Shown here one piece after another: positions 18,887 through 31,168 of a stretch of DNA of 64,000 nt. Numbering within the stretch: position 1 is the first letter of the stretch; each line of letters starts with the position of its first letter. The DNA comes from a candidate division WOR-1 bacterium RIFOXYB2_FULL_46_45. Lineage in GTDB: Bacteria > Margulisbacteria > WOR-1 > XYC2-FULL-46-14. The position numbers were made by a program, and so were the translations under genes. The notes beneath the pieces were generated by a model. That model saw only the letters and a program-made list of their open reading frames with translations. It did no database searches and was not told the origin of the DNA. The DNA lies in the NCBI GenBank assembly GCA_001771585.1, contig MEUE01000001.1, positions 21,062-85,061 of the forward strand. The letters are read 5' to 3'.

Positions 18887-19867
18887 ATGCCCAAAAACAA
18901 AATCGATACAATCGCGGTCTTAACCCCGGGAGGAGACGCGCCGGGGATGAACACCGCCATTCGCGCGGTGGTCCGGACTGCCATTTATCACAATCTAAGA
19001 ATTTTCGGGATCCAGAAAGGATGGTACGGCTTGACCACCGGCCAGATCGAAGAGTTAAATTTAAAATCAGTCGGCGGGATTATCAATAAAGGGGGAACGA
19101 TCCTCCATACCCACCGCTGTCCAGAATTTAAAGATTCCCGGGTGCGCCAAACCGGTTATAAAAACCTGGCCGAACATGGAATCGACGGGCTGGTCGTTAT
19201 CGGCGGCGACGGTTCGCTTGCCGCCGCTAACGTTGTCGCTAAAGAGACCGAATTAAACGTTGTTCATATCCCCGCCAGCATCGACAACGACATCAGCTTA
19301 ACCGATTATACGATCGGCTTTGACACCGCGGTCAATACCGCGCTCGATGCGATCGACAAGATCAGGGACACCGCCACCTCTCACGAGCGGGTCTTTGTGG
19401 TTGAAGTGATGGGAAGGAAACACGGCATCCTGGCGCTTGAAATCGGGCTGGTCAGCGGCGCGGAGTCAATTATTATTCCCGAAGTAAAATTTAATATTGC
19501 GAAGACCGCGGAAAAGATCAAAGAGGGGAGGGAGCGGGGAAAATCAAGTTTTATCATCGTGGTGGCCGAAGGGGCAATTTCTGCCATTGAATTCGCCAAA
19601 AAATTGAAAGGTAGAATCAAAAACATGGATATCAGGATCAGCGTTCTGGGGCATGTACAAAGGGGCGGCTCTCCAACCGCCATTTCACGAGAGCTGGCCT
19701 GTAAAATGGGAGCCAACGCGGTTGAAGCTCTGATTGAAGGTAAAAACTGTCTTATGATGGCAGCCAGGTCGGAGAATATCTGTCCGGTTCCGTTTAAGGA
19801 TGTTTTGAAACATAAGAAGACCGCCGATCTTAGCCAGTTGAAGCTGGCCGAGATGCTGGCGATTTAG
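18887..19867 (+). CDS. pfkA: 6-phosphofructokinase, ATP-dependent type
   Basis: IAVLTPGGDAPGMN, GGDGS and PASIDND are present. Gly is retained in GGDGS, unlike PPi-dependent enzymes. Confidence 0.88.
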   Translation: MPKNKIDTIAVLTPGGDAPGMNTAIRAVVRTAIYHNLRIFGIQKGWYGLTTGQIEELNLKSVGGIINKGGTILHTHRCPEFKDSRVRQTGYKNLAEHGIDGLVVIGGDGSLAAANVVAKETELNVVHIPASIDNDISLTDYTIGFDTAVNTALDAIDKIRDTATSHERVFVVEVMGRKHGILALEIGLVSGAESIIIPEVKFNIAKTAEKIKEGRERGKSSFIIVVAEGAISAIEFAKKLKGRIKNMDIRISVLGHVQRGGSPTAISRELACKMGANAVEALIEGKNCLMMAARSENICPVPFKDVLKHKKTADLSQLKLAEMLAI

Positions 19868-19907: not shown

Positions 19908-21323
19908 ATGAGCATAATTGTAAATAGATATGGTTTGCCTAAAAGGGAAATAGCTCACCTAATATTTTCAAACGAGTCAAATAAAGCAGACGATTCACTT
20001 ATACAACGGATAGTTATGCCTTTTCATCAAAATGGAACTTTTTTTATTGGAGAAAGAGCAAACAATCCTCCTTATATTCGAGGTGAAAAGAATGAAGGAT
20101 TTCTTCCTTGGGCTAGAGAAGTGACTCTTCAGGACCTAGAGCTATTAGAAATGAGTAAAGAGTTGTCTGGAATAAGTCTTTCCGAAGGAGATAGGGTATT
20201 AGTTGCCGATGCAGTTGCTAATTCTCTTACTTACTCAGATGTTGATGGCGTTCCAATTGCAGATAAAATACCTAATCAAAACTATATTGATTATGTAAGA
20301 AGATCAATAGGCTTATTATTATTTAATGATGTTAATAAGGAGTTTGATTCTGAAAAAGAGTATAACTCTCTAGGGAGAGCGGTCGTTTTATCTGTTGTAG
20401 AAAAACTAGAAAAAGAGAAACTAGAAAATCTTATGGTTTATGCAATTCTTGCCGGAGTAATTGGACTCGATATTAAATGTTCTTTTTGTGCTGCTTCAAC
20501 TTTTGATAGAAAAGGGTCTATTTGGTTAGGATGCTATGACTCTCATGATTCCGCTGTAGAGGGAGTAATTCTTGATTTAAGAAGAAGGATATCGCAATTT
20601 GATACACTTTTGTTTGACTGGAATAAATATCATTCATTGGTTTTAGAAAATCCTTGTATGCTAACTTTTTTCCCTGATGATATTCCAGAAACAATATTTG
20701 ATCTGTATCAATTACAAAAGCAAATGCTTTTTAATCCGCAACTTAGAGTACAGGTGATACCAAGAGGAGGTAGATTTCATAATGATGCCTCTTTTGAAGA
20801 TACTATGGGCCTACTTGATGAACCAATATTTTCAGATCTCGGAAGATTTATGAATGAGGGGCGTCTAGTTGTTTCTCCTCATGGCCCTAAAAATGGAGGG
20901 CTTGATTTAACCAAATTATCAAGAGAGGCAGCAGAGCTCGTCCTTGCTTCAGATGTATTGTATATAAAAGGTTCGCGTTCCTATGAGTTGGCGGCAACCG
21001 GGATCAGAATTCCGACATTTTTTGCACAAACAGTTTCAAGAGAGTTTTCAGAATCAGTTATTGGTGTTGATGCAAATAAAATGTTACCAGCTTTACAATA
21101 TGTACATGCTTTTCCTGGATTTTGGGGTTTTAGAAACAGAAATAATAACGAAGGATGGACTTCTGATATGACGGCAATTCAAAGTTCTCGTTTTATTCAG
21201 TCAGCACCCTTTGCTCGTTATGCTGATCAATATGGAGGAGTGGATGCGCTATCTCTTAGGATAATGGATAGATCTATCCAAGAAGGGATTCCACCACATT
21301 TAATAGAATTATGCATTTTGTAA
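19908..21323 (+). CDS. Hypothetical protein, possibly a DUF89/ARMT1-like damage-control phosphatase
   Basis: FFPDDIPETIFDL resembles the DUF89 DNAGE-x-FD metal motif, and VLYIKGSRSYE resembles the KGxxNYE motif. The gene has strongly lower GC and different codon usage from its neighbours. Confidence 0.3.
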   Translation: MSIIVNRYGLPKREIAHLIFSNESNKADDSLIQRIVMPFHQNGTFFIGERANNPPYIRGEKNEGFLPWAREVTLQDLELLEMSKELSGISLSEGDRVLVADAVANSLTYSDVDGVPIADKIPNQNYIDYVRRSIGLLLFNDVNKEFDSEKEYNSLGRAVVLSVVEKLEKEKLENLMVYAILAGVIGLDIKCSFCAASTFDRKGSIWLGCYDSHDSAVEGVILDLRRRISQFDTLLFDWNKYHSLVLENPCMLTFFPDDIPETIFDLYQLQKQMLFNPQLRVQVIPRGGRFHNDASFEDTMGLLDEPIFSDLGRFMNEGRLVVSPHGPKNGGLDLTKLSREAAELVLASDVLYIKGSRSYELAATGIRIPTFFAQTVSREFSESVIGVDANKMLPALQYVHAFPGFWGFRNRNNNEGWTSDMTAIQSSRFIQSAPFARYADQYGGVDALSLRIMDRSIQEGIPPHLIELCIL

Positions 21324-22306
21324 AAGGAACAGCATCATTATATAGGCCAATATTGTTATCATTGATTAGGTCAAGATCTCTTTCTGGATTGCCTTTATAT
21401 GTCGATGTTCATCCTACAACAAGGTGTAACTTGGAATGCCGCTGGTGTGTTAACAAAACAAATAAAGATACCGCGGCTTCGGAAACAATGAATGATGTTA
21501 ATATTCCTATGTATTTAACTAAGCTATTGGAGCCTCGTCCCAATAGTCCTTCCTATTCTCCCAAAAGAATTCATTTTTGTGGCGGAGAACCATTATTAAG
21601 ACGATCCGTTGTATTAGCCGGAATACGTTTTCTTGAAGGAAAAGATATTGCTGTCTCTCTTGTAACCAATGGAACATTATTAATCCAGGAAGTTAGACTG
21701 GCTGTTTTGGGCGTTGAATCCCTACAGGTTAGCATAGATGCTCAGGACCGCGAAACTTACGCCAGATTAAAAAGGGGAGATTATTTTGAGCAGGTTCTAA
21801 GAAACTTAGAAGCTTTAGCTAATTTAAGATCTAAGTCAAATTCATCTTTGCGTCTCGTAGTTAATTACGTTTTGTGCAGAGATAATATAAATGCCCTTCA
21901 TCCCTTTTTAACGCGGCTTTCAAATATTGGAGTTGATAAAATACAATTTAGAACCGATTTGACTGCTGATTTAGAAACTCAAAGAGCTTTACTTCAGGAA
22001 GTAATTGGCCTAAAGTATGAAGCTCCATTATCGGTAATAATTAAGTCTCCCGACACTCCAGTTACTAGAGATTCTTTTGACAATTGCTTGGCCCGTTTTA
22101 TTTGGATTGTTTTGGGATCGGATTTATCTATTTATCCTTGTGCCCATACGGTAGCCAGAGGTTTTCAAATGGGAAGTTTAATTGACTCTAATCTTTTTGA
22201 AGTTTTAGAAAAAAACATTAAATCCCCAAACCCCAATTGTTTGAGGATTTGTCCCTCTACTTGTGGAAATATCAATCTCCTAGGGCAGGAGATTTTAGAT
22301 CAATAA
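21311..22306 (+). CDS. Radical SAM enzyme with a C-terminal SPASM/twitch-like Cys cluster
   Basis: The CxxxCxxC motif is TTRCNLECRWC, with GGEPLL present. The C-terminal cysteines are CAHT...NCLRICPSTCGN. It overlaps the preceding gene by 13 nt and lies in the same low-GC segment. Confidence 0.75.
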   Translation: MHFVKGTASLYRPILLSLIRSRSLSGLPLYVDVHPTTRCNLECRWCVNKTNKDTAASETMNDVNIPMYLTKLLEPRPNSPSYSPKRIHFCGGEPLLRRSVVLAGIRFLEGKDIAVSLVTNGTLLIQEVRLAVLGVESLQVSIDAQDRETYARLKRGDYFEQVLRNLEALANLRSKSNSSLRLVVNYVLCRDNINALHPFLTRLSNIGVDKIQFRTDLTADLETQRALLQEVIGLKYEAPLSVIIKSPDTPVTRDSFDNCLARFIWIVLGSDLSIYPCAHTVARGFQMGSLIDSNLFEVLEKNIKSPNPNCLRICPSTCGNINLLGQEILDQ

Positions 22307-23508
22307 AACTCCACCGCGTCTTTCATTGCAAGGAGCTGGTTATCCGCAGGAATAAAGGCGCCGCCTTTGACTTCCAATAAGTTGTTCGCGACGATTTTAT
22401 CCGCCTGAAGGCCGGGATAGGTCCCAAACTTTGAATCCCGGATAAATCCAAAGATCGCATCTCCGAATCTTAAACCCAGCAGGCGGTCGGCAACATGGGC
22501 CACTCCGCCGCGGATGGCGTGGCCGCAGTTCTGCAGGCGGTATTCAATCCCTTTAGTATGTTTTTCCAATAGGGCATAAATATATTCCCCAATTCCACCC
22601 AGTTGCTCATTTCCAAAAGAATCGAGTTTCTTGGGTAACGCGTGCCGGGCTTTGATCATGGCGTATTTTGGGTCGGCTAAAACATCGTCCAATAACTTTT
22701 GGTTGCTGTCGTTAATTTCTTTTGGGTAACTCTTGTCAAAGAGGCGGGATCCTTCAGACGTTACCACGACACAATAATTCTGATAGGCCATCGCCTTTTC
22801 AACCTTTTTGATAACCTGGCGCATGTCAACCGTTTCTTCCGGAAGAAGGACAATATCTGCTCCTCCGGCAATTCCGGCATGAAGCGCGACCCAGCCGGCA
22901 TGCCGTCCCATTAGTTCTATGACAAAACAGCGGTTGTGGGAGCGGACGGTCGTCATAATATTCTCAATAAAATGGACCGATTCGATCACCGCCGACTCAA
23001 AACCATACGTCCTCTCGGTGCCAAAAACATCGTTATCCATGGTTTTGGGAGCCCCAAGCATCGGGAAAGAAAATTGTTTCCCCAGTTTTCCGGCGGCGCC
23101 AAGGGTATCATCTCCGCCTAAAACAACCAAACAATCAATCCCAAGCTTCTTTAGATTTTCCATCGCCTTTTCGGGGGCTTTCGCTTCAATATTTGCCTTT
23201 GAAAAGAGATTGGTGCGGGAGGATTTGATGATTGTCCCGGAAACCTTATAGCTGTCTTTTAAATCTTCGGTTTTTAATGGACGAAGGATTTTATCCTTTT
23301 CGGTATCGGGATTTCTGGTTAGTGCTTTCCATCCTTCCAGCAGGCCGATTAACTCCATCTTTTCATCGGCCGGAAGCGACTGGTTTGCCTGATTGATCCT
23401 GCGCAGTAGTCCGTAGATTACGGCATTGTGTCCGGCGCAATCCCCGCCGCCGGTTAGGATTCCGATTCTTTTGATGTTAATTTCTTTTCCCTGAAACTTG
23501 ACTCTCAT
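22300..23508 (-). CDS. pfp: Pyrophosphate-dependent phosphofructokinase (PFK-A family, PPi type)
   Basis: GGDDT has Asp replacing the ATP-specific Gly, and PKTMDND has Lys replacing Gly. Both are established PPi-PFK signatures. The protein is 402 aa. Confidence 0.8.
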   Translation of the reverse strand: MRVKFQGKEINIKRIGILTGGGDCAGHNAVIYGLLRRINQANQSLPADEKMELIGLLEGWKALTRNPDTEKDKILRPLKTEDLKDSYKVSGTIIKSSRTNLFSKANIEAKAPEKAMENLKKLGIDCLVVLGGDDTLGAAGKLGKQFSFPMLGAPKTMDNDVFGTERTYGFESAVIESVHFIENIMTTVRSHNRCFVIELMGRHAGWVALHAGIAGGADIVLLPEETVDMRQVIKKVEKAMAYQNYCVVVTSEGSRLFDKSYPKEINDSNQKLLDDVLADPKYAMIKARHALPKKLDSFGNEQLGGIGEYIYALLEKHTKGIEYRLQNCGHAIRGGVAHVADRLLGLRFGDAIFGFIRDSKFGTYPGLQADKIVANNLLEVKGGAFIPADNQLLAMKDAVEFY

Positions 23509-25243: not shown

Positions 25244-25645
25244 TTATAAAACTCCTTTTCTATTTTTTAAAGATGATCCTCACCATCAACTCCTCTCCCT
25301 GAGAAAGAGGAAAATCCCGAGCGGAGTCAAGGGACGGAACTTTTATTATAGCAAATAATTTATAATATGTAAGCAGAATATCAGAATATACGGCTTACGC
25401 GCGCAAGATTTTCACTATAAATCCCGATATATAGATTGATGAAGATTAAGCCAATATTCTATCGGGTAAAGATAGAATGATCCTAGAGCGGGTACAAAAT
25501 TTAATTAAATAAAGTGGTGATGGTCGGGATATGTTTTTACTTTCCCGTCGCAGATATAAAAAAAGGTATTTAAAAAAAATATTGCATGAAATGATGATTT
25601 TAAAACGATAAGTATTTAGGACACTTCCAAAGAGGAGGAAAAGAA

Positions 25646-26920
25646 ATGATAGCAATTAGACCTGGCCATGCCGCAATTCAACCTAAAGCCATACAAGTAC
25701 TACCAAAAGGATCGGTGGATTTTTCTACTGTTCGGTCTCATGCTTTGATGGTGGGGAGTACAAGTTTTTCGCTTAGCAAGTTTAGACGTGGGGGGAGCGA
25801 TATTGCAATAAGCATTGGCGAATTAGAACTTGGGAAAATAGGAATGAACCAATCGATCGCTTTAGTTTATGGCGGGGTTGATTATGTCTTTTCCAGGAAA
25901 ACCTGCGCCGAACTTGATACTGTTTCTGTTGCTGCTTTGGATCTGCCTTCTGACATAGAGCCATATTATCATTCCATGAATATGGCTCTAGAAAGGATGG
26001 AAGCTGAAGGATTCGAAGAAGATGGTCCGATTATAAAAAGACCCGCTATAACCAGGCAAGTACAAGTTGATTCTTCTGATGTCAAATGCATGGGAGATCC
26101 GGGATATTTAATAGAAATTAATCCTGGAGTAAAAACAGTATTTATCGGAGATCTTCACGCGAATGCTAAAAATTTATTAAGCGCCGTAAACGCCCACGAA
26201 AAAGAATTGGCTGAAGAAAAGGTTGTTATTGTGGTTATGGGGGATGCTATCCATCCCCAAACCGGCAACTTGGAAGAAATGGATTCTTCAATTGAAATGA
26301 TCAGGATTATTTGCGACCTAAAAGCAAAGTACGGGGATTGTTTTCATTATATATTGGGGGATCATGAAACCTTGGAACCCGGATTCATGACAAAGAGAAA
26401 TATTGACCAGCCGGATCTTTTTGTGAAAGCGGTAGTTAGAAAACTCGGTAATGCGTATGTCAGAAAGATCGATGCTTTATGGAAAGGCTGTCCATATGCG
26501 GTACTTATACCTGGAATTGCTTTTGCGGCACATAATGCTGTTGTGGAAAACTTGAACGGTATAGATGATATTATTCACGCGGGACTTCCCGGAAGCGAGA
26601 GGGTGGCCTTGACCTTATTGAGCTTCAGGCCAGAAGCAGTTGATTTGAAAAGCGGTAATACTTATCCCCCCCAAGCCTCGGAAAGGATGAAACAACTTTT
26701 AAAAGTAAAAAACCTGATTTCTGCCCACACCTCGGATCCGGAGGGTAAAAGTTCAATTGTAACTTTTGGGCAAATGCCCGGCCATTATTTCCTTCAAGGA
26801 TGGGGAAGCCCCGAATTCTTGCCGTTTCAGGTTATGGAGGTTGGGGAAGACGGGAATTTGCTCCCAATATTTATTAGTCCTGATGGAGAAAAAAGCCTCG
26901 GACAAGTGAGGAATATATGA
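25646..26920 (+). CDS. Two-domain protein with an unknown ~150-aa N-terminal domain and a calcineurin-like metallophosphoesterase domain (divergent PPP motifs)
   Basis: GDLHA, GDAIH and GDHE occur at PPP-like spacings (~31 and ~39 aa), resembling GDxHG / GDxxDRG / GNHE. A strong SD AGAGGAGG lies upstream. GC is lower than in the flanking genes. Confidence 0.45.
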   Translation: MIAIRPGHAAIQPKAIQVLPKGSVDFSTVRSHALMVGSTSFSLSKFRRGGSDIAISIGELELGKIGMNQSIALVYGGVDYVFSRKTCAELDTVSVAALDLPSDIEPYYHSMNMALERMEAEGFEEDGPIIKRPAITRQVQVDSSDVKCMGDPGYLIEINPGVKTVFIGDLHANAKNLLSAVNAHEKELAEEKVVIVVMGDAIHPQTGNLEEMDSSIEMIRIICDLKAKYGDCFHYILGDHETLEPGFMTKRNIDQPDLFVKAVVRKLGNAYVRKIDALWKGCPYAVLIPGIAFAAHNAVVENLNGIDDIIHAGLPGSERVALTLLSFRPEAVDLKSGNTYPPQASERMKQLLKVKNLISAHTSDPEGKSSIVTFGQMPGHYFLQGWGSPEFLPFQVMEVGEDGNLLPIFISPDGEKSLGQVRNI

Positions 26921-27513
26921 GCGACTGGCAGTGTAATTTTAAACCGACGGCACAAAAATATTATACATTAAAACCCGAGGATAAGCTGTGTGTAAATACC
27001 GATCCAAACAAGCATTATCGAATCGAGGTTAAAAGCAGGGACGATGCCGAATTAAAGCTTCGTGAATTAGCAAAAAAAGCATTAACTGAAGAGTCTTGGA
27101 TATATATTGAAGTTAAATTAAAGAATGGAAAAATTGCCAGGTTTTTGTGCGAAGACGGGGTTAATGAAGAAAAAGGAGCGATCGGCGAAGTCAACATAAA
27201 AGTTCTAGACGAAATTTTGAAATTAGGACAGATTCTTGAAATAGGGGATTATCACATCCACCCAACAGATTCCCTAAAAAGTGTAAGTAGTCTTGGATTG
27301 CCAGTGTTTGATTTGACATCTCCCGCTGATTTAGAAAGTGCGAACACAAGGAAAGAATATCTTGCTCGACAAGGATTTAAAGATATTCCTTATGATTCAA
27401 GATCGGTATCAGAAAAAAAAGTAATTATTGTCATTCCTCCCAAGGAAGAAGCTGGAGAATTTCCATTTTCTTTCATTTCTTCTATCCCAAAAATTATTTA
27501 TAGAAAGTTTTGA
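26917..27513 (+). CDS. Hypothetical protein (198 aa), translationally coupled to the upstream phosphatase-like gene
   Basis: The ATGA overlap couples it to the upstream gene. It contains EIGDYHIHPTDSLKS, which is His-rich but not a clean JAMM motif. No recognisable family was found. Confidence 0.35.
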   Translation: MSDWQCNFKPTAQKYYTLKPEDKLCVNTDPNKHYRIEVKSRDDAELKLRELAKKALTEESWIYIEVKLKNGKIARFLCEDGVNEEKGAIGEVNIKVLDEILKLGQILEIGDYHIHPTDSLKSVSSLGLPVFDLTSPADLESANTRKEYLARQGFKDIPYDSRSVSEKKVIIVIPPKEEAGEFPFSFISSIPKIIYRKF

Positions 27514-27607
27514 TGTGGTTATTTTAATGAATTTAGAATAGGGAAAGACAATTCATACAAGCTTTTTTAATGCAAGTTTGTTTAACATCATTGCGATATA
27601 ATAATGT

Positions 27608-28246
27608 ATGACACACGTCTTTAATATTGACCAGATTAAGCCAATTAATCGTCATCGGCCAATAGAAATTGACAACGAGAGCAGAGCTTTATCTGAAGAG
27701 TTAAAAGGTCTAAAGTATATTCCTCATCAGGAAATTCAATCAGTTGGACCACAAGTAGTAGTTCTACCCCAAAAGCCTGAGGCAGCTGGTGTTCAAAATG
27801 TAAGGACAACAGAGCACGCTGGGGGCGGGGATTGTGATGATCTGGCCCTAAAAGCTGCTTACGAAAGAAACAAAACAGCGCCAAGGCACATTGAATATGG
27901 GGTAATATCCGGATATTCTGAAAAAGTTCCTGGCAAAAAATACGATGGGCATGCCGTTATGGCAAAATTCAATAAGAGGGAGCGAAAATTTTATTTATAC
28001 GAGGTTGCGGATCCTGCCAATCCTCACCTTATTGGCAGTTTTTCGGCAAAACAAATACCCTCAAAGAGCATTCCGCAACTCAAAACCGGTGAATTTGTTA
28101 GGAATGTTTATTTTGGTGTTACAAAAGATGGAAAACCTGATTTTACAAAGAAGAGATATTTTGTTCCTGCTCCAAAGGATATTCTAAAACCATTATTTAG
28201 GCAGATAGAATTCCCAACTCTGAAACCTGAAAATCAATTGGGTTAA
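27608..28246 (+). CDS. Small transglutaminase-like cysteine peptidase family protein
   Basis: A Cys-His-Asp triad is at TGase-core-like spacing: GGGDCDDLA (C76), DGHAVMA (H115) and YEVADPANP (D135), resembling GxCxxFA / GHAW / DPT. Confidence 0.4.
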   Translation: MTHVFNIDQIKPINRHRPIEIDNESRALSEELKGLKYIPHQEIQSVGPQVVVLPQKPEAAGVQNVRTTEHAGGGDCDDLALKAAYERNKTAPRHIEYGVISGYSEKVPGKKYDGHAVMAKFNKRERKFYLYEVADPANPHLIGSFSAKQIPSKSIPQLKTGEFVRNVYFGVTKDGKPDFTKKRYFVPAPKDILKPLFRQIEFPTLKPENQLG

Positions 28247-28282: not shown

Positions 28283-29872
28283 ATGTTATATCTTTGCATC
28301 CTCGACGGATTCGGAATAGGGAAAGATAAAAAGTCTGACGCAATCCAGGCGGCGATTGCCGACGGCAAGGCACCGTTCTTTAAAGAGCTCTTTGAAAAAC
28401 ATCCTTACGCAAAATTGGAATGTTCGGGTGAAGCGGTCGGTCTCCCTCCCGGAACAATGGGAAACTCGGAAGTAAACCATTTGAATATGGGAGCCGGCCG
28501 GGTCGTTTACCAGTCGCTCCTCCGCGTCAACAAAGCAATTGAAGACGGAAGCTTCTATAATAATGAAGCCCTGCTGAAGGCGGTCAACAATTGCAAGCAA
28601 AATAATTCAACCCTGCATCTGATGGGGGTTTTGCAGGGAGGCGGCGGTTGTGTCCACGGGAACATTGAACATCTTTTTGGCTTGCTGGAATTGGTAAAAA
28701 GAAATAATTTGGAAAAAGTCGTTCTCCATCTTTTTACCGACGGACGTGACACCAACCCCAATGCGGCGGGAAACGAATATATTCCCCAACTATTAAAAAA
28801 GAGCAAAGCTCAAATTGGGACCGTGATGGGGAGGACCTACGCAATGGATCGCGACCAAAATTGGCCTTCGGTCATCAAAGCGCTCAAGGCGCTGGTCAAC
28901 GGTATCGGAGTTAGAAAAGAACCGGATATTGTCTCCGCTATCAAGACGGCCTATGCTTCAAATGAGACAGACGAATTCATCCAGCCGACGGTGATTGGGG
29001 AATATAAAGGGATGGATGAAAAAGATTCGGTCATATTTTGGAATTTCAGGCAGGATCGGGGGATTGAGCTGACCACCTGCTTCCGCGAACAGGACCGGAA
29101 GTTTTTTAACTACAAACCGAAACAGCCGGAGATAGGTGACGATTTATATAATGAAATAGAAAAGATTCAAGCCCGGGTGCGCGGCCTCACTTTTGTGGCG
29201 ATGACCGAATATTATGAAGGGATGAACGCCCTTTCGGCCTTCCCCGAAAAAGAGATCGAGAACACGGTCGGAGAAATTGTTTCTCGCGCCGGGATGAAAC
29301 AACTTCGCCTGGCCGGGCCGGAAAAATTTGTCCATGTTACAGGCTGGTTTTCCGGGCGGCATTCCGAACCCTTTCCCGGGGAAGACCGGATTTTGGCCAA
29401 AGATCCGACTTTGAAAGAACGGACCAACAACGGCAAAAATTACGACTGGGTCCCGGAGATGACCGCCTATATTGAGACCGAGGAATCGCTAAAAGCGATC
29501 AAATCAAAAAAGTATGATCTGATCGTCCACAACTTTCAAAACGGGGATATGGTGGGGCACACCGGGAATTTTGACGCGGCCGAAAAAGCGATCATTGCCT
29601 TATCGTCTTGCGTTGAACATATTTACAAAGCGGTAATGGACGCGGGCGGGGTGATGATTATCACCGCCGACCACGGCAACGCGGATGAAATGGTAATTGA
29701 CGGAACAATCGTCAGTACACAGCATTCAACCAATCCGGTTCCTTGCTGGATCTTAGGCAAAGACGTCAAACTTCAATCAAATGGGATCATTCCCGATATC
29801 GGCACCACAGCGTTAAAACTGCTTAATTTGGAAATACCGAAAGAGATGACGGGAAAAGTTCTCTATTCCTGA
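28283..29872 (+). CDS. gpmI: 2,3-bisphosphoglycerate-independent phosphoglycerate mutase
   Basis: LCILDGFGIG and SEVNHLNMGAGRVVYQ match iPGM (E. coli SEVGHLNLGAGRIVYQ). The protein is 529 aa. Confidence 0.9.
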   Translation: MLYLCILDGFGIGKDKKSDAIQAAIADGKAPFFKELFEKHPYAKLECSGEAVGLPPGTMGNSEVNHLNMGAGRVVYQSLLRVNKAIEDGSFYNNEALLKAVNNCKQNNSTLHLMGVLQGGGGCVHGNIEHLFGLLELVKRNNLEKVVLHLFTDGRDTNPNAAGNEYIPQLLKKSKAQIGTVMGRTYAMDRDQNWPSVIKALKALVNGIGVRKEPDIVSAIKTAYASNETDEFIQPTVIGEYKGMDEKDSVIFWNFRQDRGIELTTCFREQDRKFFNYKPKQPEIGDDLYNEIEKIQARVRGLTFVAMTEYYEGMNALSAFPEKEIENTVGEIVSRAGMKQLRLAGPEKFVHVTGWFSGRHSEPFPGEDRILAKDPTLKERTNNGKNYDWVPEMTAYIETEESLKAIKSKKYDLIVHNFQNGDMVGHTGNFDAAEKAIIALSSCVEHIYKAVMDAGGVMIITADHGNADEMVIDGTIVSTQHSTNPVPCWILGKDVKLQSNGIIPDIGTTALKLLNLEIPKEMTGKVLYS

Positions 29873-30483
29873 CGCGGCATCACGTAACAAGTCGATCTTC
29901 CCTGACCCTGGGTCAACACCAACTTCTTGTCCGACAGCATCGTTAATTCAATATGCGCGGTCTTGTGTGAAATGTTAAACGCTTCTCTGTATTCGCGGTT
30001 GCAGATTGAACCGTGTTCGGCAATCATCTGCATGGCGCGTAGCTGGCGCTTGTTCAACCCGTAGCCCCCCCATGGGTTGGTGATCTGTTTTTCTTCTTCT
30101 TCCCTGGCCGGGCGCGAAACCGCCCCGTCGCGGATATAGGCGATATCGTCGGTGCGGTACGGTTTTTCGTCGCCCTCCGGCACGGTGATGATTACGATCC
30201 GCTTAACCCCATGGTTAAAAATTTCAATGTCGACATGGATCTTGGGTGAACAGCGCTTTAGCAGGATTTCTTTGATGTCATCCTCGAAATCATCACCAAT
30301 CATGGCTCCCAAAAGATGTTTGTTCTTGTCGTCAATTCCGTAAACGATTTTTCCGCCGTCGGCATTGGCAAAAGCGATGATATCGCGGGCAATATCTTCG
30401 GGAGGGGGGACCTGCTTTTCAAACTCCAGCGTCTGCCCTTCGCCCTGGCCTAAAAGGTCCATTATATCCTGCCATGTTGTCAT
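29863..30483 (-). CDS. AlbA_2 (Schlafen-like) domain DNA-binding protein with a C-terminal winged HTH
   Basis: LEFEKQ...DIARDIIAFANADGGKIVYGIDD is AlbA_2-like. The C-terminal HTH reads EYREAFNISHKTAHIELTMLSDKKLV. The start is chosen at MTTWQD; the ORF track extends to 30618. Confidence 0.55.
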   Translation of the reverse strand: MTTWQDIMDLLGQGEGQTLEFEKQVPPPEDIARDIIAFANADGGKIVYGIDDKNKHLLGAMIGDDFEDDIKEILLKRCSPKIHVDIEIFNHGVKRIVIITVPEGDEKPYRTDDIAYIRDGAVSRPAREEEEKQITNPWGGYGLNKRQLRAMQMIAEHGSICNREYREAFNISHKTAHIELTMLSDKKLVLTQGQGRSTCYVMPRQE

Positions 30484-30544
30484 GTGGTGATGATTAAGAT
30501 AACACATCGAGTTTTCAAATGCAAGTATGCTATAATTCACGCAA

Positions 30545-31168
30545 ATGGCGAACCTAACCGAACAAATTCTTGACCTGATCTTCCCTCCCAAGTGCGAGGT
30601 TTGCGGAAGAATTGGCAAGGAAGCGCTTTGCCAAAAATGCGCCGCCGGGATCAGTTTTTTGGCTCCCTCAATCTTCTTTCACGCGGTCGGAGAATATGAA
30701 GGGATTCTAAAGAATGCTATTCTGCGCTTCAAATTTAAAAGAATAAAACGCTTGGCGGAACCGCTCGGTCTTTTGATGGTGCAATACATCAACCATCATT
30801 TATGGAAAGATCATCTTGACATGATAATTCCGGTTCCTTTGCATGAAAAGAGACAGGCGGTGAGGGGCTTTAATCAGGCCGAGTTGCTCGCCCTAAAAAT
30901 AACCGAAGCGTGCCGTATTCCAACCGTCTCCGGACTTCTTTTTAGGAAGAGGGAGACCGCGCCGCAGTTTGATCTCCCGCGACAGAAGAGGATCTCAAAT
31001 ATCCGTGGAGCTTTTGAAGTCCGGGGCGCCAAGCTTTTATATGATAGGAATATTCTTTTGGTGGACGATATTTATACCACCGGAGCCACCGCGGGAGAAT
31101 GCACCAAAACGCTCAAAGCCGCCGGAGCCAAATCGGTCCACATCTTGACGCTTTCAAGAACCGTCTGA
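30545..31168 (+). CDS. comFC: ComF-family protein (double Zn-ribbon plus phosphoribosyltransferase domain)
   Basis: The Zn ribbon reads CEVCGR...CQKCAAG. The PRTase motif is ILLVDDIYTTGAT. Confidence 0.75.
   Translation: MANLTEQILDLIFPPKCEVCGRIGKEALCQKCAAGISFLAPSIFFHAVGEYEGILKNAILRFKFKRIKRLAEPLGLLMVQYINHHLWKDHLDMIIPVPLHEKRQAVRGFNQAELLALKITEACRIPTVSGLLFRKRETAPQFDLPRQKRISNIRGAFEVRGAKLLYDRNILLVDDIYTTGATAGECTKTLKAAGAKSVHILTLSRTV

Follow-up and report, generated by a model that had tools for sequence, protein, structure and literature searches.

We lean towards reading the DNA between tpiA and gpmI in this WOR-1/Saganbacteria genome as accessory DNA that occupies a variable hotspot and was probably gained by horizontal transfer. 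The stretch would hold two separate units, the gene pair g1-g2 and the single gene g3, and not one three-gene system. The pair is strain-specific and translationally coupled. Its second gene belongs to a rare, previously undescribed clade of JAB/MPN+ (JAMM) proteins that current Pfam models miss. The original prediction took the three genes for one cassette, and named a lack of synteny in other genomes as grounds for giving that up. No synteny of the trio is found elsewhere, and a sister lineage has g3 beside tpiA without g1-g2. That a supposed novel three-enzyme cassette comes apart into two independently inherited units calls for caution about adjacency in a single genome.

Organization of the locus

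The features are collected in Table 1. The window is the whole 64,000-nucleotide stretch that was analysed, and positions are counted from its first letter.

Table 1. Features of the tpiA-gpmI locus and of its three gene products.
Feature	Position	Strand	Size	Remark
AT-rich divergent intergenic region, tpiA (minus strand)/g1	25244-25645		402 bp	GC 0.33
Strain-specific segment (g1 upstream region, g1, g2)	25259-27569		2.3 kb	GC 0.39; from blastn of sister contig L001 against the window
g1	25646-26920	+	424 aa	ORF
g2	26917-27513	+	198 aa	ORF
g2-g3 spacer	27514-27607	+	94 bp	
g3	27608-28246	+	212 aa	ORF
g1, N-terminal domain	residues 1-160			without assignment
g1, C-terminal domain	residues 161-424			PPP-like calcineurin-type metallophosphatase domain
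g2, candidate active site	E58, H113, H115, S135, D138			JAB/MPN+ (JAMM) fold, metalloprotease-like
g3, N-terminal region			~70 aa	poorly modelled, possibly disordered
g3, conserved core	Cys76, His115, Glu132/Asp135			follows the N-terminal region

The three co-oriented ORFs and the AT-rich spacer ahead of them lie where the original prediction had placed them. The ATGA coupling that it described for two of the genes is that of g1 and g2, which overlap at 26917-26920. The Shine-Dalgarno sequence of g2, GAGGA, sits within the 3′ end of g1, and g1 itself has a strong one, GAGGAGG, 7 nt 5′ of its ATG. The ATGA overlap and the internal Shine-Dalgarno sequence thus make g1-g2 a translationally coupled pair. 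Since g2 and g3 stand 94 bp apart, only the g1/g2 junction is coupled. That 94-bp spacer holds no Shine-Dalgarno sequence for g3; it does hold a TATAAT at 27597-27602, 5 nt 5′ of the g3 ATG. The spacer is therefore likely to act as an independent promoter for g3, and the g3 mRNA may be leaderless. In the tpiA-g1 spacer, a sigma70-like site is found on the minus strand at 25373-25345. The promoter and terminator scan gave a site count not above that of shuffled sequence, and no Rfam family matches the AT-rich spacer.

All three ORFs are real genes and not chance reading frames. g1 is a real gene because it passes a Pfam gathering score, and g2 because 33 remote homologues were found for it and its fold is a confident one. 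The case for g3 is its homologue of 76% amino acid identity, with a dN/dS of 0.27 and nearly invariant core residues 72-149.

The trio is flanked by two glycolytic genes, tpiA and gpmI, and g3 has g2 and gpmI as its neighbours. Its GC content was predicted to be lower than that of the glycolytic flanks, and this is borne out at third codon positions: GC3 is 0.37 in g1, 0.29 in g2, and 0.30 in g3, against 0.44-0.63 in tpiA, fba, pfk, gpmI, and secA. This difference, together with a SoFic-like gene directly 3′ of g3 in the sister strain, argues for a foreign origin of the DNA and for a hotspot at this site. Within 10 kb to either side, the genes with a Pfam annotation serve glycolysis or housekeeping, apart from one radical SAM gene and one SLFN_AlbA_2 gene.

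The sister lineage and the distribution of the genes

Only one other genome was found to carry a close homologue of a trio gene, and it carries g3 alone, directly next to tpiA. In its contig, L001, tpiA (85% nucleotide identity) is followed by 116 bp and then by the g3 homologue (81% nucleotide and 76% amino acid identity). Compared with the window by blastn, L001 lacks g1-g2, the 2.3-kb segment being replaced by 61 bp. From 25259 onwards the AT-rich tpiA-g1 region is part of this strain-specific indel. Homology resumes at 27570, about 40 bp 5′ of the g3 ATG, and the TATAAT ahead of g3 lies within this shared stretch. The order tpiA then g3, the absence of g1-g2, and the point at which homology resumes are our reasons for counting two units. 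The indel has no target-site duplication and no terminal inverted repeats around it, and in a comparison of two lineages an insertion of g1-g2 and a deletion of it look alike. In genomes that have all three genes, g3 may still work together with g1-g2.

Every contig with the complete trio comes from the same strain, and in scans of genomes, metagenomes, viruses, and plasmids the trio is absent outside that source strain. No relatives of g1, g2, or g3 appear in scans of GTDB representative genomes, JGI metagenome contigs, or viral contigs, nor in plasmids searched by tblastn. At seven g2-family loci and at the loci of g1 relatives, the other two partners are never neighbours. Two neighbours of g2 relatives, of 213 and 256 aa, were considered as g3 equivalents and set aside as unrelated to g3.

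g1, a PPP-like metallophosphatase

g1 was predicted to be a PPP-like metallophosphatase with an unassignable N-terminal domain, and both parts of this hold. PF00149 (Metallophos) matches the full protein with 27.9 bits and residues 161-424 with 29.5 bits (cutoff 21.5), over profile positions 2-187 of 191. Among the Pfam, NCBIfam, PADLOC, and PHROGs scans of the trio's products, this match is the only one. A PDB search with a profile of g1 and its relative P0004 gave 64 matches at E ≤ 1, the best being PP5 (E = 0.002). The 60 best of these 64 are PPP-type Ser/Thr phosphatases (PP5, PP1, PP2A, BSU1), save one axonemal protein named only FAP15; enzymes of the Mre11, SbcD, or CpdA type do not occur among these 60. 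As judged from the profile matches, g1 is a calcineurin-like metallophosphatase, and it is nearer to the PPP phosphatases than to other metallophosphoesterases.

The predicted motifs are in place, here as in g2 and g3. g1 has GDLHA at 168-172, GDAIH at 199-203, and GDHE at 238-241, followed by AAHN294 (H296) or IIHAG near 311 (H311), and SAHT359, so that the motif IV His is ambiguous. The order and spacing of GDLHA, GD-x-x-H, G-D-H-E, and the two His motifs that come after them are those of the PPP-family phosphatases (PP5, PP1, PP2A, and the bacterial PrpA/PrpE/ApaH relatives). The metal-ligand series of the calcineurin-like superfamily runs D-x-H, G-D, G-N-H-[DE], H, G-H; with Asp for Asn in GDHE and the motif IV His ambiguous, g1 may or may not be active. 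It does not carry the full PPP signature GDxHG / GDxVDRG / GNHE, with its Asp-His dyad partner and phosphate-binding Arg. Where PPP enzymes have GDxVDRG, g1 reads GDAIHPQ, in which neither the second Asp nor the phosphate-binding Arg is kept; where they have GNHE, g1 has GDHE, with Asp in place of the motif III Asn. These departures fall at catalytically relevant positions, which makes the activity and substrate class of g1 uncertain. Its substrates could equally be nucleotides, e.g., Np4N or cyclic nucleotides.

For the N-terminal 160 residues, no relatives and no family match were detected. GenBank gives g1 as a shorter, 358-aa form. The word-indexed search of 5.8 billion clusters returned a single weak relative, P0004 from Thiodiazotropha, with 31% identity over the catalytic core; its N-terminal domain and its gene neighbourhood both differ from those of g1. 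A neighbour of this relative was considered as a JAB partner and rejected, as it is a P-loop protein.

g2, a divergent JAB/MPN+ protein

The protein g2 had been called unassignable, a view that we revise. Its histidine-rich HIHPTD, part of a YHIHP motif at residues 112-116, corresponds to the HxH zinc site in a fold of the JAB/MPN+ (JAMM) type. The MPN fold is present in g2, and the best structural match is the deubiquitinase-like JAMM1. The E, H, H, and D of the active site are invariant in 18 aligned family members. The usual sequence searches are silent: Pfam and NCBIfam scans do not match g2, single-sequence and profile searches of PDB sequences give nothing significant, and the word-indexed search of 5.8 billion clusters finds no relatives. 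In full-length scans, the Pfam JAB, Prok-JAB, and RadC models match neither g2 nor any of 17 relatives. A eukaryotic Tudor-repeat protein (P0006) that came up in the search for g2 relatives was discarded as a false positive.

Sequence identity between g2 and known JAB/MPN+ metallopeptidases (archaeal JAMM1, Rpn11/CSN5/BRCC36, Cap3 of CBASS, BilC, RadC) is 11-17%. The spacing of the active site differs as well. From the second His of HxH to SxxD there are 19 residues in g2 and 7 in canonical JAMMs; counted from the Pro of HxHP, the spacer is 18 residues in g2, 6-38 across the family, and about 6 in canonical JAMMs. Only one g2 relative has a spacer of canonical length. Compared with the known JAMMs, the family also has conserved N-terminal elements of its own, VNT..HY and W.E.G.NE. 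Thus, OGC03956.1 and its roughly 33 metagenomic relatives, annotated as hypothetical everywhere, can be described as a divergent clade of JAB/MPN+ metallopeptidases, which adds to the known sequence diversity of JAMM enzymes and probably to their range of substrates.

Many of the relatives have predicted signal or lipoprotein leaders, whereas g2 itself has none, which suggests that the substrate of the family may not be a cytoplasmic conjugate of the Ubl type. Some members occur as tandem copies or as VWA-HEAT fusions.

g3, a possible BTLCP/LapG-type peptidase

g3 was predicted to be a transglutaminase-fold peptidase with a Cys-His-Asp triad. Its motifs are GDCDD at 74-78 (Cys76), GHAV at 114-117 (His115), and ADPA at 134-137 (Asp135). 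The assignment survives in part, through a modest match to the BTLCP/LapG proteins. An hhalign comparison with eight authentic BTLCP/LapG proteins gave P = 0.0029 (probability 10.8%) and placed Cys76 and His115 on the catalytic Cys and His, and E132 on the Asp. None of 160 column shuffles reached this score, and 11 of 200 did so when the Cys motif was removed. What does not survive is a Transglut_core type, which we reject: there is no Pfam match, and the comparison with nine authentic Transglut_core (PF01841) segments gave P = 0.08 in an irrelevant region, where the positive control, Transglut_core against BTLCP, gave P = 2.6e-8.

The likeness to the BTLCP/LapG family (PF06035; "transglutaminase-like cysteine peptidase" in PGAP) includes GDC[DE]D-x-A-x-x-K around the nucleophile, H-A/M-V-L/M around the His, similar Cys-His and His-acid spacings, and a predicted order of helix, then strands. 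In the AF2 model, made from two sequences and poor (pLDDT 42), a helix begins at Cys76 and is followed by strands bearing His115 and E132/D135. There are also differences. LapG is described as periplasmic (PDB 4fgo), whereas the g3 N-terminus is not hydrophobic and has no signal peptide. The LapG genes fetched adjoin lapD or EAL-domain genes; g3 has no LapD-type partner gene. g3 further stands apart by its 70-residue N-terminus and by a beta region of its own at the C-terminal end. To summarize, g3 is probably, on weak support, a thiol peptidase of the papain/transglutaminase superfamily, closest to BTLCP/LapG.

That the Cys-His-Asp pattern is coincidental, and g3 a small protein of another fold with no peptidase function, is the less likely reading, though one with appreciable weight. 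It would explain why Pfam, NCBIfam, and PADLOC do not match g3, why single-sequence and profile searches of PDB sequences find nothing significant, and why unrelated proteins dominate the fold searches with the low-confidence model; the failure against Transglut_core also fits it. Set against this are the BTLCP/LapG alignment and the conservation of the core. The word-indexed search of 5.8 billion clusters returned only the sister-lineage homologue, so that two members are known in all.

A model for the locus and its alternatives

In the two-unit reading, g1 would be a cytoplasmic PPP-like binuclear metallophosphatase, its private N-terminal domain presumably serving in targeting or regulation, and g2 a zinc metallopeptidase of the rare JAB/MPN+ clade. 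The two would be produced at a constant ratio and share one protein target or pathway, on which one enzyme would hydrolyse phosphate esters and the other cleave a peptide or isopeptide bond; together they would strip modifications from proteins. g3, inherited without g1-g2 and with its own conserved upstream sequence, would most likely act in the cytoplasm as a thiol peptidase or amidase with a Cys-His-Asp/Glu triad, within the transglutaminase/BTLCP superfamily. From the data above we infer the enzymatic activities, the protein substrates, the fold of g3, and the partnership of g1 with g2, the last from a single genome. If the coupled phosphatase and JAMM do act together, they would make a compact module that clears proteins of phosphate and (iso)peptide modifications. 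We know of no precedent for a phosphatase-JAMM module of this kind. In other respects, this is unremarkable accessory DNA of a candidate-phylum genome.

A single signalling or deconjugation module, in which phosphatase, JAMM isopeptidase, and thiol peptidase act in sequence on one modified target, seems distinctly improbable. The genes are co-oriented, closely spaced, and low in GC3, all three products are predicted hydrolases of modification-removing kinds, and calcineurin-type phosphoesterases, JAB peptidases, and transglutaminase-like peptidases recur as effector domains in bacterial conflict systems (PMC7159879). However, the only related lineage keeps g3 and its upstream sequence without g1-g2, the g2/g3 gap is uncoupled, and partners are missing near 7/7 g2-family loci and both g1-relative loci. 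PADLOC-DB 2.0 gives no match at E ≤ 10 for any of the three proteins, and full-text literature searches turned up nothing relevant on an operon of phosphatase, JAB, and transglutaminase, in line with the original statement that the genes match no known operon. An equally improbable proposal has the pair process nucleic acids or nucleotides: g2 would be a RadC-like or otherwise non-proteolytic JAB, with nucleic acid or a small-molecule amide, for example, as its substrate, and g1 would be a phosphodiesterase of nucleotides or nucleic acids. The PPP protein phosphatases among the PDB matches listed for g1 speak against it, as do the JAMM1 match of g2, the silence of the Pfam RadC model, and the many family members predicted to be secreted.

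It is unlikely that g1-g2, alone or together with g3, is carried as cargo in a hotspot for defence or counter-defence, be it as a two-gene anti-phage system of an undescribed kind or to inhibit immunity that works through Ubl or nucleotides. In that case g1 would break down a nucleotide signal or take the phosphate off a target, and the JAB would remove a Ubl-type conjugate in the manner of Cap3 and BilC. Against this stand the PADLOC result, the lack of a meaningful PHROGs match for all three proteins, and the absence of relatives in viral contigs, plasmids, and GTDB representative genomes. No ThiF (E1), UBC (E2), Ubl, or CD-NTase gene lies within 10 kb of the locus, and no E1, E2, Ubl, or CD-NTase lies beside the g2 relatives at seven loci, whose contexts are heterogeneous and mostly not defence-like. 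A pVip match covers only the generic radical-SAM core. A more far-reaching version is quite unlikely: here a defence or variable hotspot would carry g1-g2 as a two-gene module of an undescribed kind, with g3 recruited where present. The PPP-like phosphoesterase and the new-clade JAB would jointly reverse protein modifications (phosphorylation together with a peptide or isopeptide linkage, Ubl-type or other), and the module would either provide immunity or inhibit it. In the same version the g2 family would, separately, stand as a new lineage of JAMMs; its members would for the most part be secreted or anchored as lipoproteins, and would act on something other than a classical cytoplasmic Ubl conjugate.

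In proteins of the phage lambda tail protein K type, JAB and NlpC/P60 are combined as domains of a single tail protein encoded in a phage tail module. Here the genes are separate and inherited independently, phage genes are absent from the neighbourhood, and PHROGs gives no match; the likeness lies in the pairing of a JAB with a papain-fold thiol peptidase.

Locus Layout and Composition

The original prediction described a cassette of three co-oriented genes in DNA of lower GC than its flanks. Its ORF positions, quoted motifs and residue numbers all prove correct, and the compositional contrast is real: GC3 is 0.37 in gene 1, 0.29 in gene 2 and 0.30 in gene 3, versus 0.44-0.63 in housekeeping genes of the flanks. 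On one side the locus borders on minus-strand pfk-fba-tpiA, on the other on plus-strand gpmI (iPGM). A spacer of 402 bp (GC 0.33) lies upstream of gene 1, and a gap of 94 bp separates genes 2 and 3. Gene 1 is preceded by a GAGGAGG Shine-Dalgarno sequence, and its stop codon overlaps the start of gene 2 (ATGA), which has its own GAGGA; to judge from this arrangement, genes 1 and 2 are translationally coupled.

Coordinates of the features in the window
Feature	Coordinates	Strand	Description
Phosphofructokinase paralogue	18887-19867	+	326 aa
Second low-GC islet	19908-22306	+	GC3 0.21-0.27
Phosphofructokinase paralogue	22300-23508	-	402 aa
Gene 1	25646-26920	+	424 aa ORF
Gene 2	26917-27513	+	198 aa ORF
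TATAAT	27597-27602		ends 5 nt before the gene 3 ATG
Gene 3	27608-28246	+	212 aa ORF
Schlafen/AlbA_2-domain gene	29863-30618	-	PF04326, E=1e-21
ComF-like phosphoribosyltransferase	30545-31168		ORF next to the Schlafen/AlbA_2 gene

Identical proteins, all listed as hypothetical (A2276_04990, A2276_04995 and A2276_05000), are recorded in NCBI for RIFOXYA12_FULL_43_27 (WOR-1/Saganbacteria), and they also occur in sibling bins that come from the same site. In GenBank, the gene 1 product (OGC03955.1) has 358 aa, starting at Met67, whereas the gene calls of JGI, ENA and Logan begin at 25646 and give 424 aa. The longer form is favored by its far better ribosome-binding site, i.e., GAGGAGG, and by the other gene callers. 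The extra N-terminal residues (25646-25846 region) include RRGG at positions 47-50.

A Gene Pair and an Independent Neighbor

All contigs carrying the three genes together represent one strain. The sole diverged relative is a sister-lineage contig, L001 (Logan SRR22388213), in which tpiA (85% nucleotide and 91% amino acid identity) is followed, after 116 bp, by a homologue of gene 3. Homology between L001 and the window ends at 25258 and resumes at 27570, so that the 2,311 bp with the AT-rich spacer, gene 1 and gene 2 in the window correspond to 61 bp in L001. Thus genes 1 and 2 form one 2.3-kb low-GC block, present or absent together. No direct or inverted repeats are found at the borders of this indel. 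The resumed homology covers ~40 bp upstream of gene 3 and, downstream of it, reaches the next start codon (window 28284). There, in the place of gpmI, L001 has at 1236-1775 a gene for a Fic protein of SoFic-like type (PADLOC PDLC03963, E=1e-27; Pfam Fic_N and Fic). As the homology runs to the start codon in both lineages, the same promoter-proximal sequence precedes different genes.

At seven loci with a relative of gene 2 and two with the gene 1 relative, the neighbors are unrelated and the other two genes are absent. Since the trio is not syntenic elsewhere, the outcome that the original prediction itself named as refuting it, and L001 has gene 3 without genes 1 and 2, the proposed three-gene cassette is not borne out, and the trio as one system is not supported. 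What remains is a coupled gene 1-gene 2 pair, from a single strain, and an independent gene 3.

Gene 2: A JAB/MPN+ Protein

Gene 2 had been considered unassignable, and word-indexed searches indeed find no relatives of it. When 1.84 billion representatives were scanned exhaustively with HMMER, 35 proteins scored at E<=1e-3, of which 33 remain as relatives after removal of the query and a eukaryotic Tudor-repeat protein, dropped as a false positive. In an alignment of 18 family sequences, residues N27, Y34, L51, E58, E79, G81, Y112, H113, H115 and D138 are invariant, and the family pattern is EE.W ... W.E.G.NE ... YHxHP ... PSxxD. In the structure model, E58 opens a strand, HxH closes one, and a helix has SxxD at its N-terminus, which is the usual JAMM arrangement. 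Gene 2 therefore encodes an MPN+ (JAMM-type) protein with a seemingly intact catalytic signature, in which every zinc and catalytic position has a candidate residue. The gene 2 comparison gave values of 11.1 for P. furiosus JAMM1, 9.8 for RadC, 9.6 for BRCC36, 9.2 for CBASS Cap3, 9.0 for Rpn11, 7.6 for BilC and 6.4 for AfJAMM.

The family differs from described JABs in the loop from the Pro of HxHP to SxxD, which has 18 residues in gene 2 and 6-38 across the family, the canonical length occurring in one protein only, P0012. The Pfam JAB, Prok-JAB and RadC models match neither gene 2 nor any of 17 relatives scanned at full length. Gene 2 defines a JAB clade outside the curated models. The clade is varied in architecture, as P0007, P0012, P0028, P0013, P0023 and P0036 illustrate. 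Several short members begin with lipoprotein or TAT-like leaders. The JAB-like domain occurs three times in tandem in P0007 and follows VWA and HEAT repeats in P0012 and P0028, and P0008, P0010 and P0016 have a common EF-hand-like N-terminal segment.

Gene 1: A PPP-Like Metallophosphatase

The prediction of a PPP-like metallophosphatase holds at the level of the nearest family. Gene 1 scores above the curated cutoff of Pfam PF00149 (calcineurin-like phosphoesterase), and residues 161-424 alone reach 29.5 bits (E=1.2e-6) over profile positions 2-187 of 191. Besides gene 1 itself, 5.8 billion clusters hold a single relative, a Thiodiazotropha metallophosphoesterase, P0004, which is 31% identical in the catalytic core and shares the motifs GDLH, GDA[IV]H, EMDSSI and G[DN]H[ED]. 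When the two sequences were made into a profile and run against all PDB sequences, 64 matches were obtained at E<=1. Of these, 60 are listed, all of them PPP Ser/Thr phosphatases with the exception of one axonemal protein named only FAP15; the best of these is PP5 (E=0.002), followed by BSU1, PP1, rdgC and PP2A. Because the PDB matches listed are nearly all PPP enzymes, "PPP-like" is justified as a description of the closest family.

Strict PPP membership, as judged from the motifs, fails at motifs II, III and IV. Unlike PPP phosphatases, gene 1 has GDAIHPQ as motif II, without the second Asp and the Arg, and GDHE as motif III, with Asp where the metal-binding Asn is expected; for the motif IV His there are two candidates, H296 and H311. 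The N-terminal 160 residues have no detected relatives and are unlike the P0004 N-terminus, in keeping with the unassignable N-domain first described.

The P0004 gene (L012 7390-9461, on Thiodiazotropha contig JAHXIN010000004.1) follows a gene for a 199-aa P-loop protein (GPPGAGKST) and sits in a phosphate-transport cluster (PhoU_div, PHO4, Na/Pi cotransporters). This location hints at a link between phosphate homeostasis and the P0004 branch of the phosphatase subfamily.

Gene 3: A Probable Thiol Peptidase

The sole homologue of gene 3 is the L001 protein, P0002 (76% identity). Residues 72-149 are almost invariant between the two, and both ends diverge. The dN/dS of 0.27 indicates a functional gene. 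Gene 3 encodes a separately inherited small protein with a conserved Cys/His/acid core.

A transglutaminase-like Cys protease had been proposed. No library or PDB sequence search recognizes gene 3, and the two-sequence AF2 model is poor (pLDDT 42), with a helix from Cys76 followed by strands bearing His115 and E132/D135. Authentic annotated-plasmid proteins, 8 BTLCP/LapG (bacterial transglutaminase-like cysteine proteinases) and 9 Transglut_core segments, served as the test set for hhalign. Gene 3 aligned with BTLCP at P=0.0029 (probability 10.8%), a score reached by 0 of 160 column shuffles, pairing Cys76 with the LapG Cys, His115 with the LapG His and E132 with the catalytic Asp. Most of the signal comes from the GDCxDxAxxK motif; once that motif is left out, the alignment of the His-acid segment keeps its register but becomes marginal, and 11 of 200 shuffles reach the score. 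A Transglut_core type was negative, whereas the control alignment of Transglut_core with BTLCP was strongly positive. In contrast to LapG, gene 3 has neither a signal peptide nor a LapD partner. We consider membership of gene 3 in the transglutaminase/BTLCP superfamily, as a thiol peptidase, reasonably probable.

Gene 3 has no Shine-Dalgarno sequence. A TATAAT kept in both lineages lies just upstream of its ATG, which suggests an independent, possibly leaderless transcript; window 27570-27610 has no good -35 element.

Between the window and L001, synonymous divergence of gene 3 (L001 549-1193) is 0.52, less than half the 1.15 of adjacent tpiA (L001 1-432). At the protein level gene 3 is less conserved, with tpiA having a dN/dS of 0.046. 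The low dS could reflect a constraint that base composition places on AT-rich codons, or a more recent exchange of gene 3 between lineages.

Possible Functions and Context

The three proteins each fall in a known superfamily, and none is a routine member. The value of the locus lies in the new JAMM clade and in the PPP-JAMM coupling of genes 1 and 2, found in a single genome and, to our knowledge, unprecedented. The products of genes 1 and 2 would be made together and share a target. The gene 1 protein would hydrolyze phosphate esters, most likely in a phosphoprotein, given its PPP affinity; nucleotide substrates are possible because the PPP arginine is missing. The gene 2 protein would cut a peptide or isopeptide bond. 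Gene 3 would act alone, as a thiol peptidase or amidase in the cytoplasm.

The pair might be an undescribed module for removing protein modifications, or a defense module; we regard this as rather unlikely. No Ubl, E1 or E2 genes lie within 10 kb of the trio, and PADLOC, viral and plasmid searches with the trio proteins were negative. Some circumstantial color for a defense or counter-defense role comes from the surroundings: SoFic in the sister strain, a pVip-like radical SAM gene 3.3 kb upstream and, on the downstream side, the Schlafen/AlbA_2 gene.

The radical SAM gene scores E=1.9e-22 with the PADLOC models for prokaryotic viperin (pVip), over profile positions 2-163 of 257 only, i.e., the generic radical-SAM core. 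It overlaps by 13 nt a 471-aa ORF whose match to the ARMT1-like damage-control phosphatases (PF01937) is below threshold, at 23.5 bits where the cutoff is 25. This low-GC pair lies in the second islet, on the other side of pfk-fba-tpiA, and is flanked on both sides by the phosphofructokinase paralogues, which are <5 kb apart. The Schlafen/AlbA_2 gene overlaps the end of gpmI by 10 nt and also overlaps the start of the ComF-like ORF.
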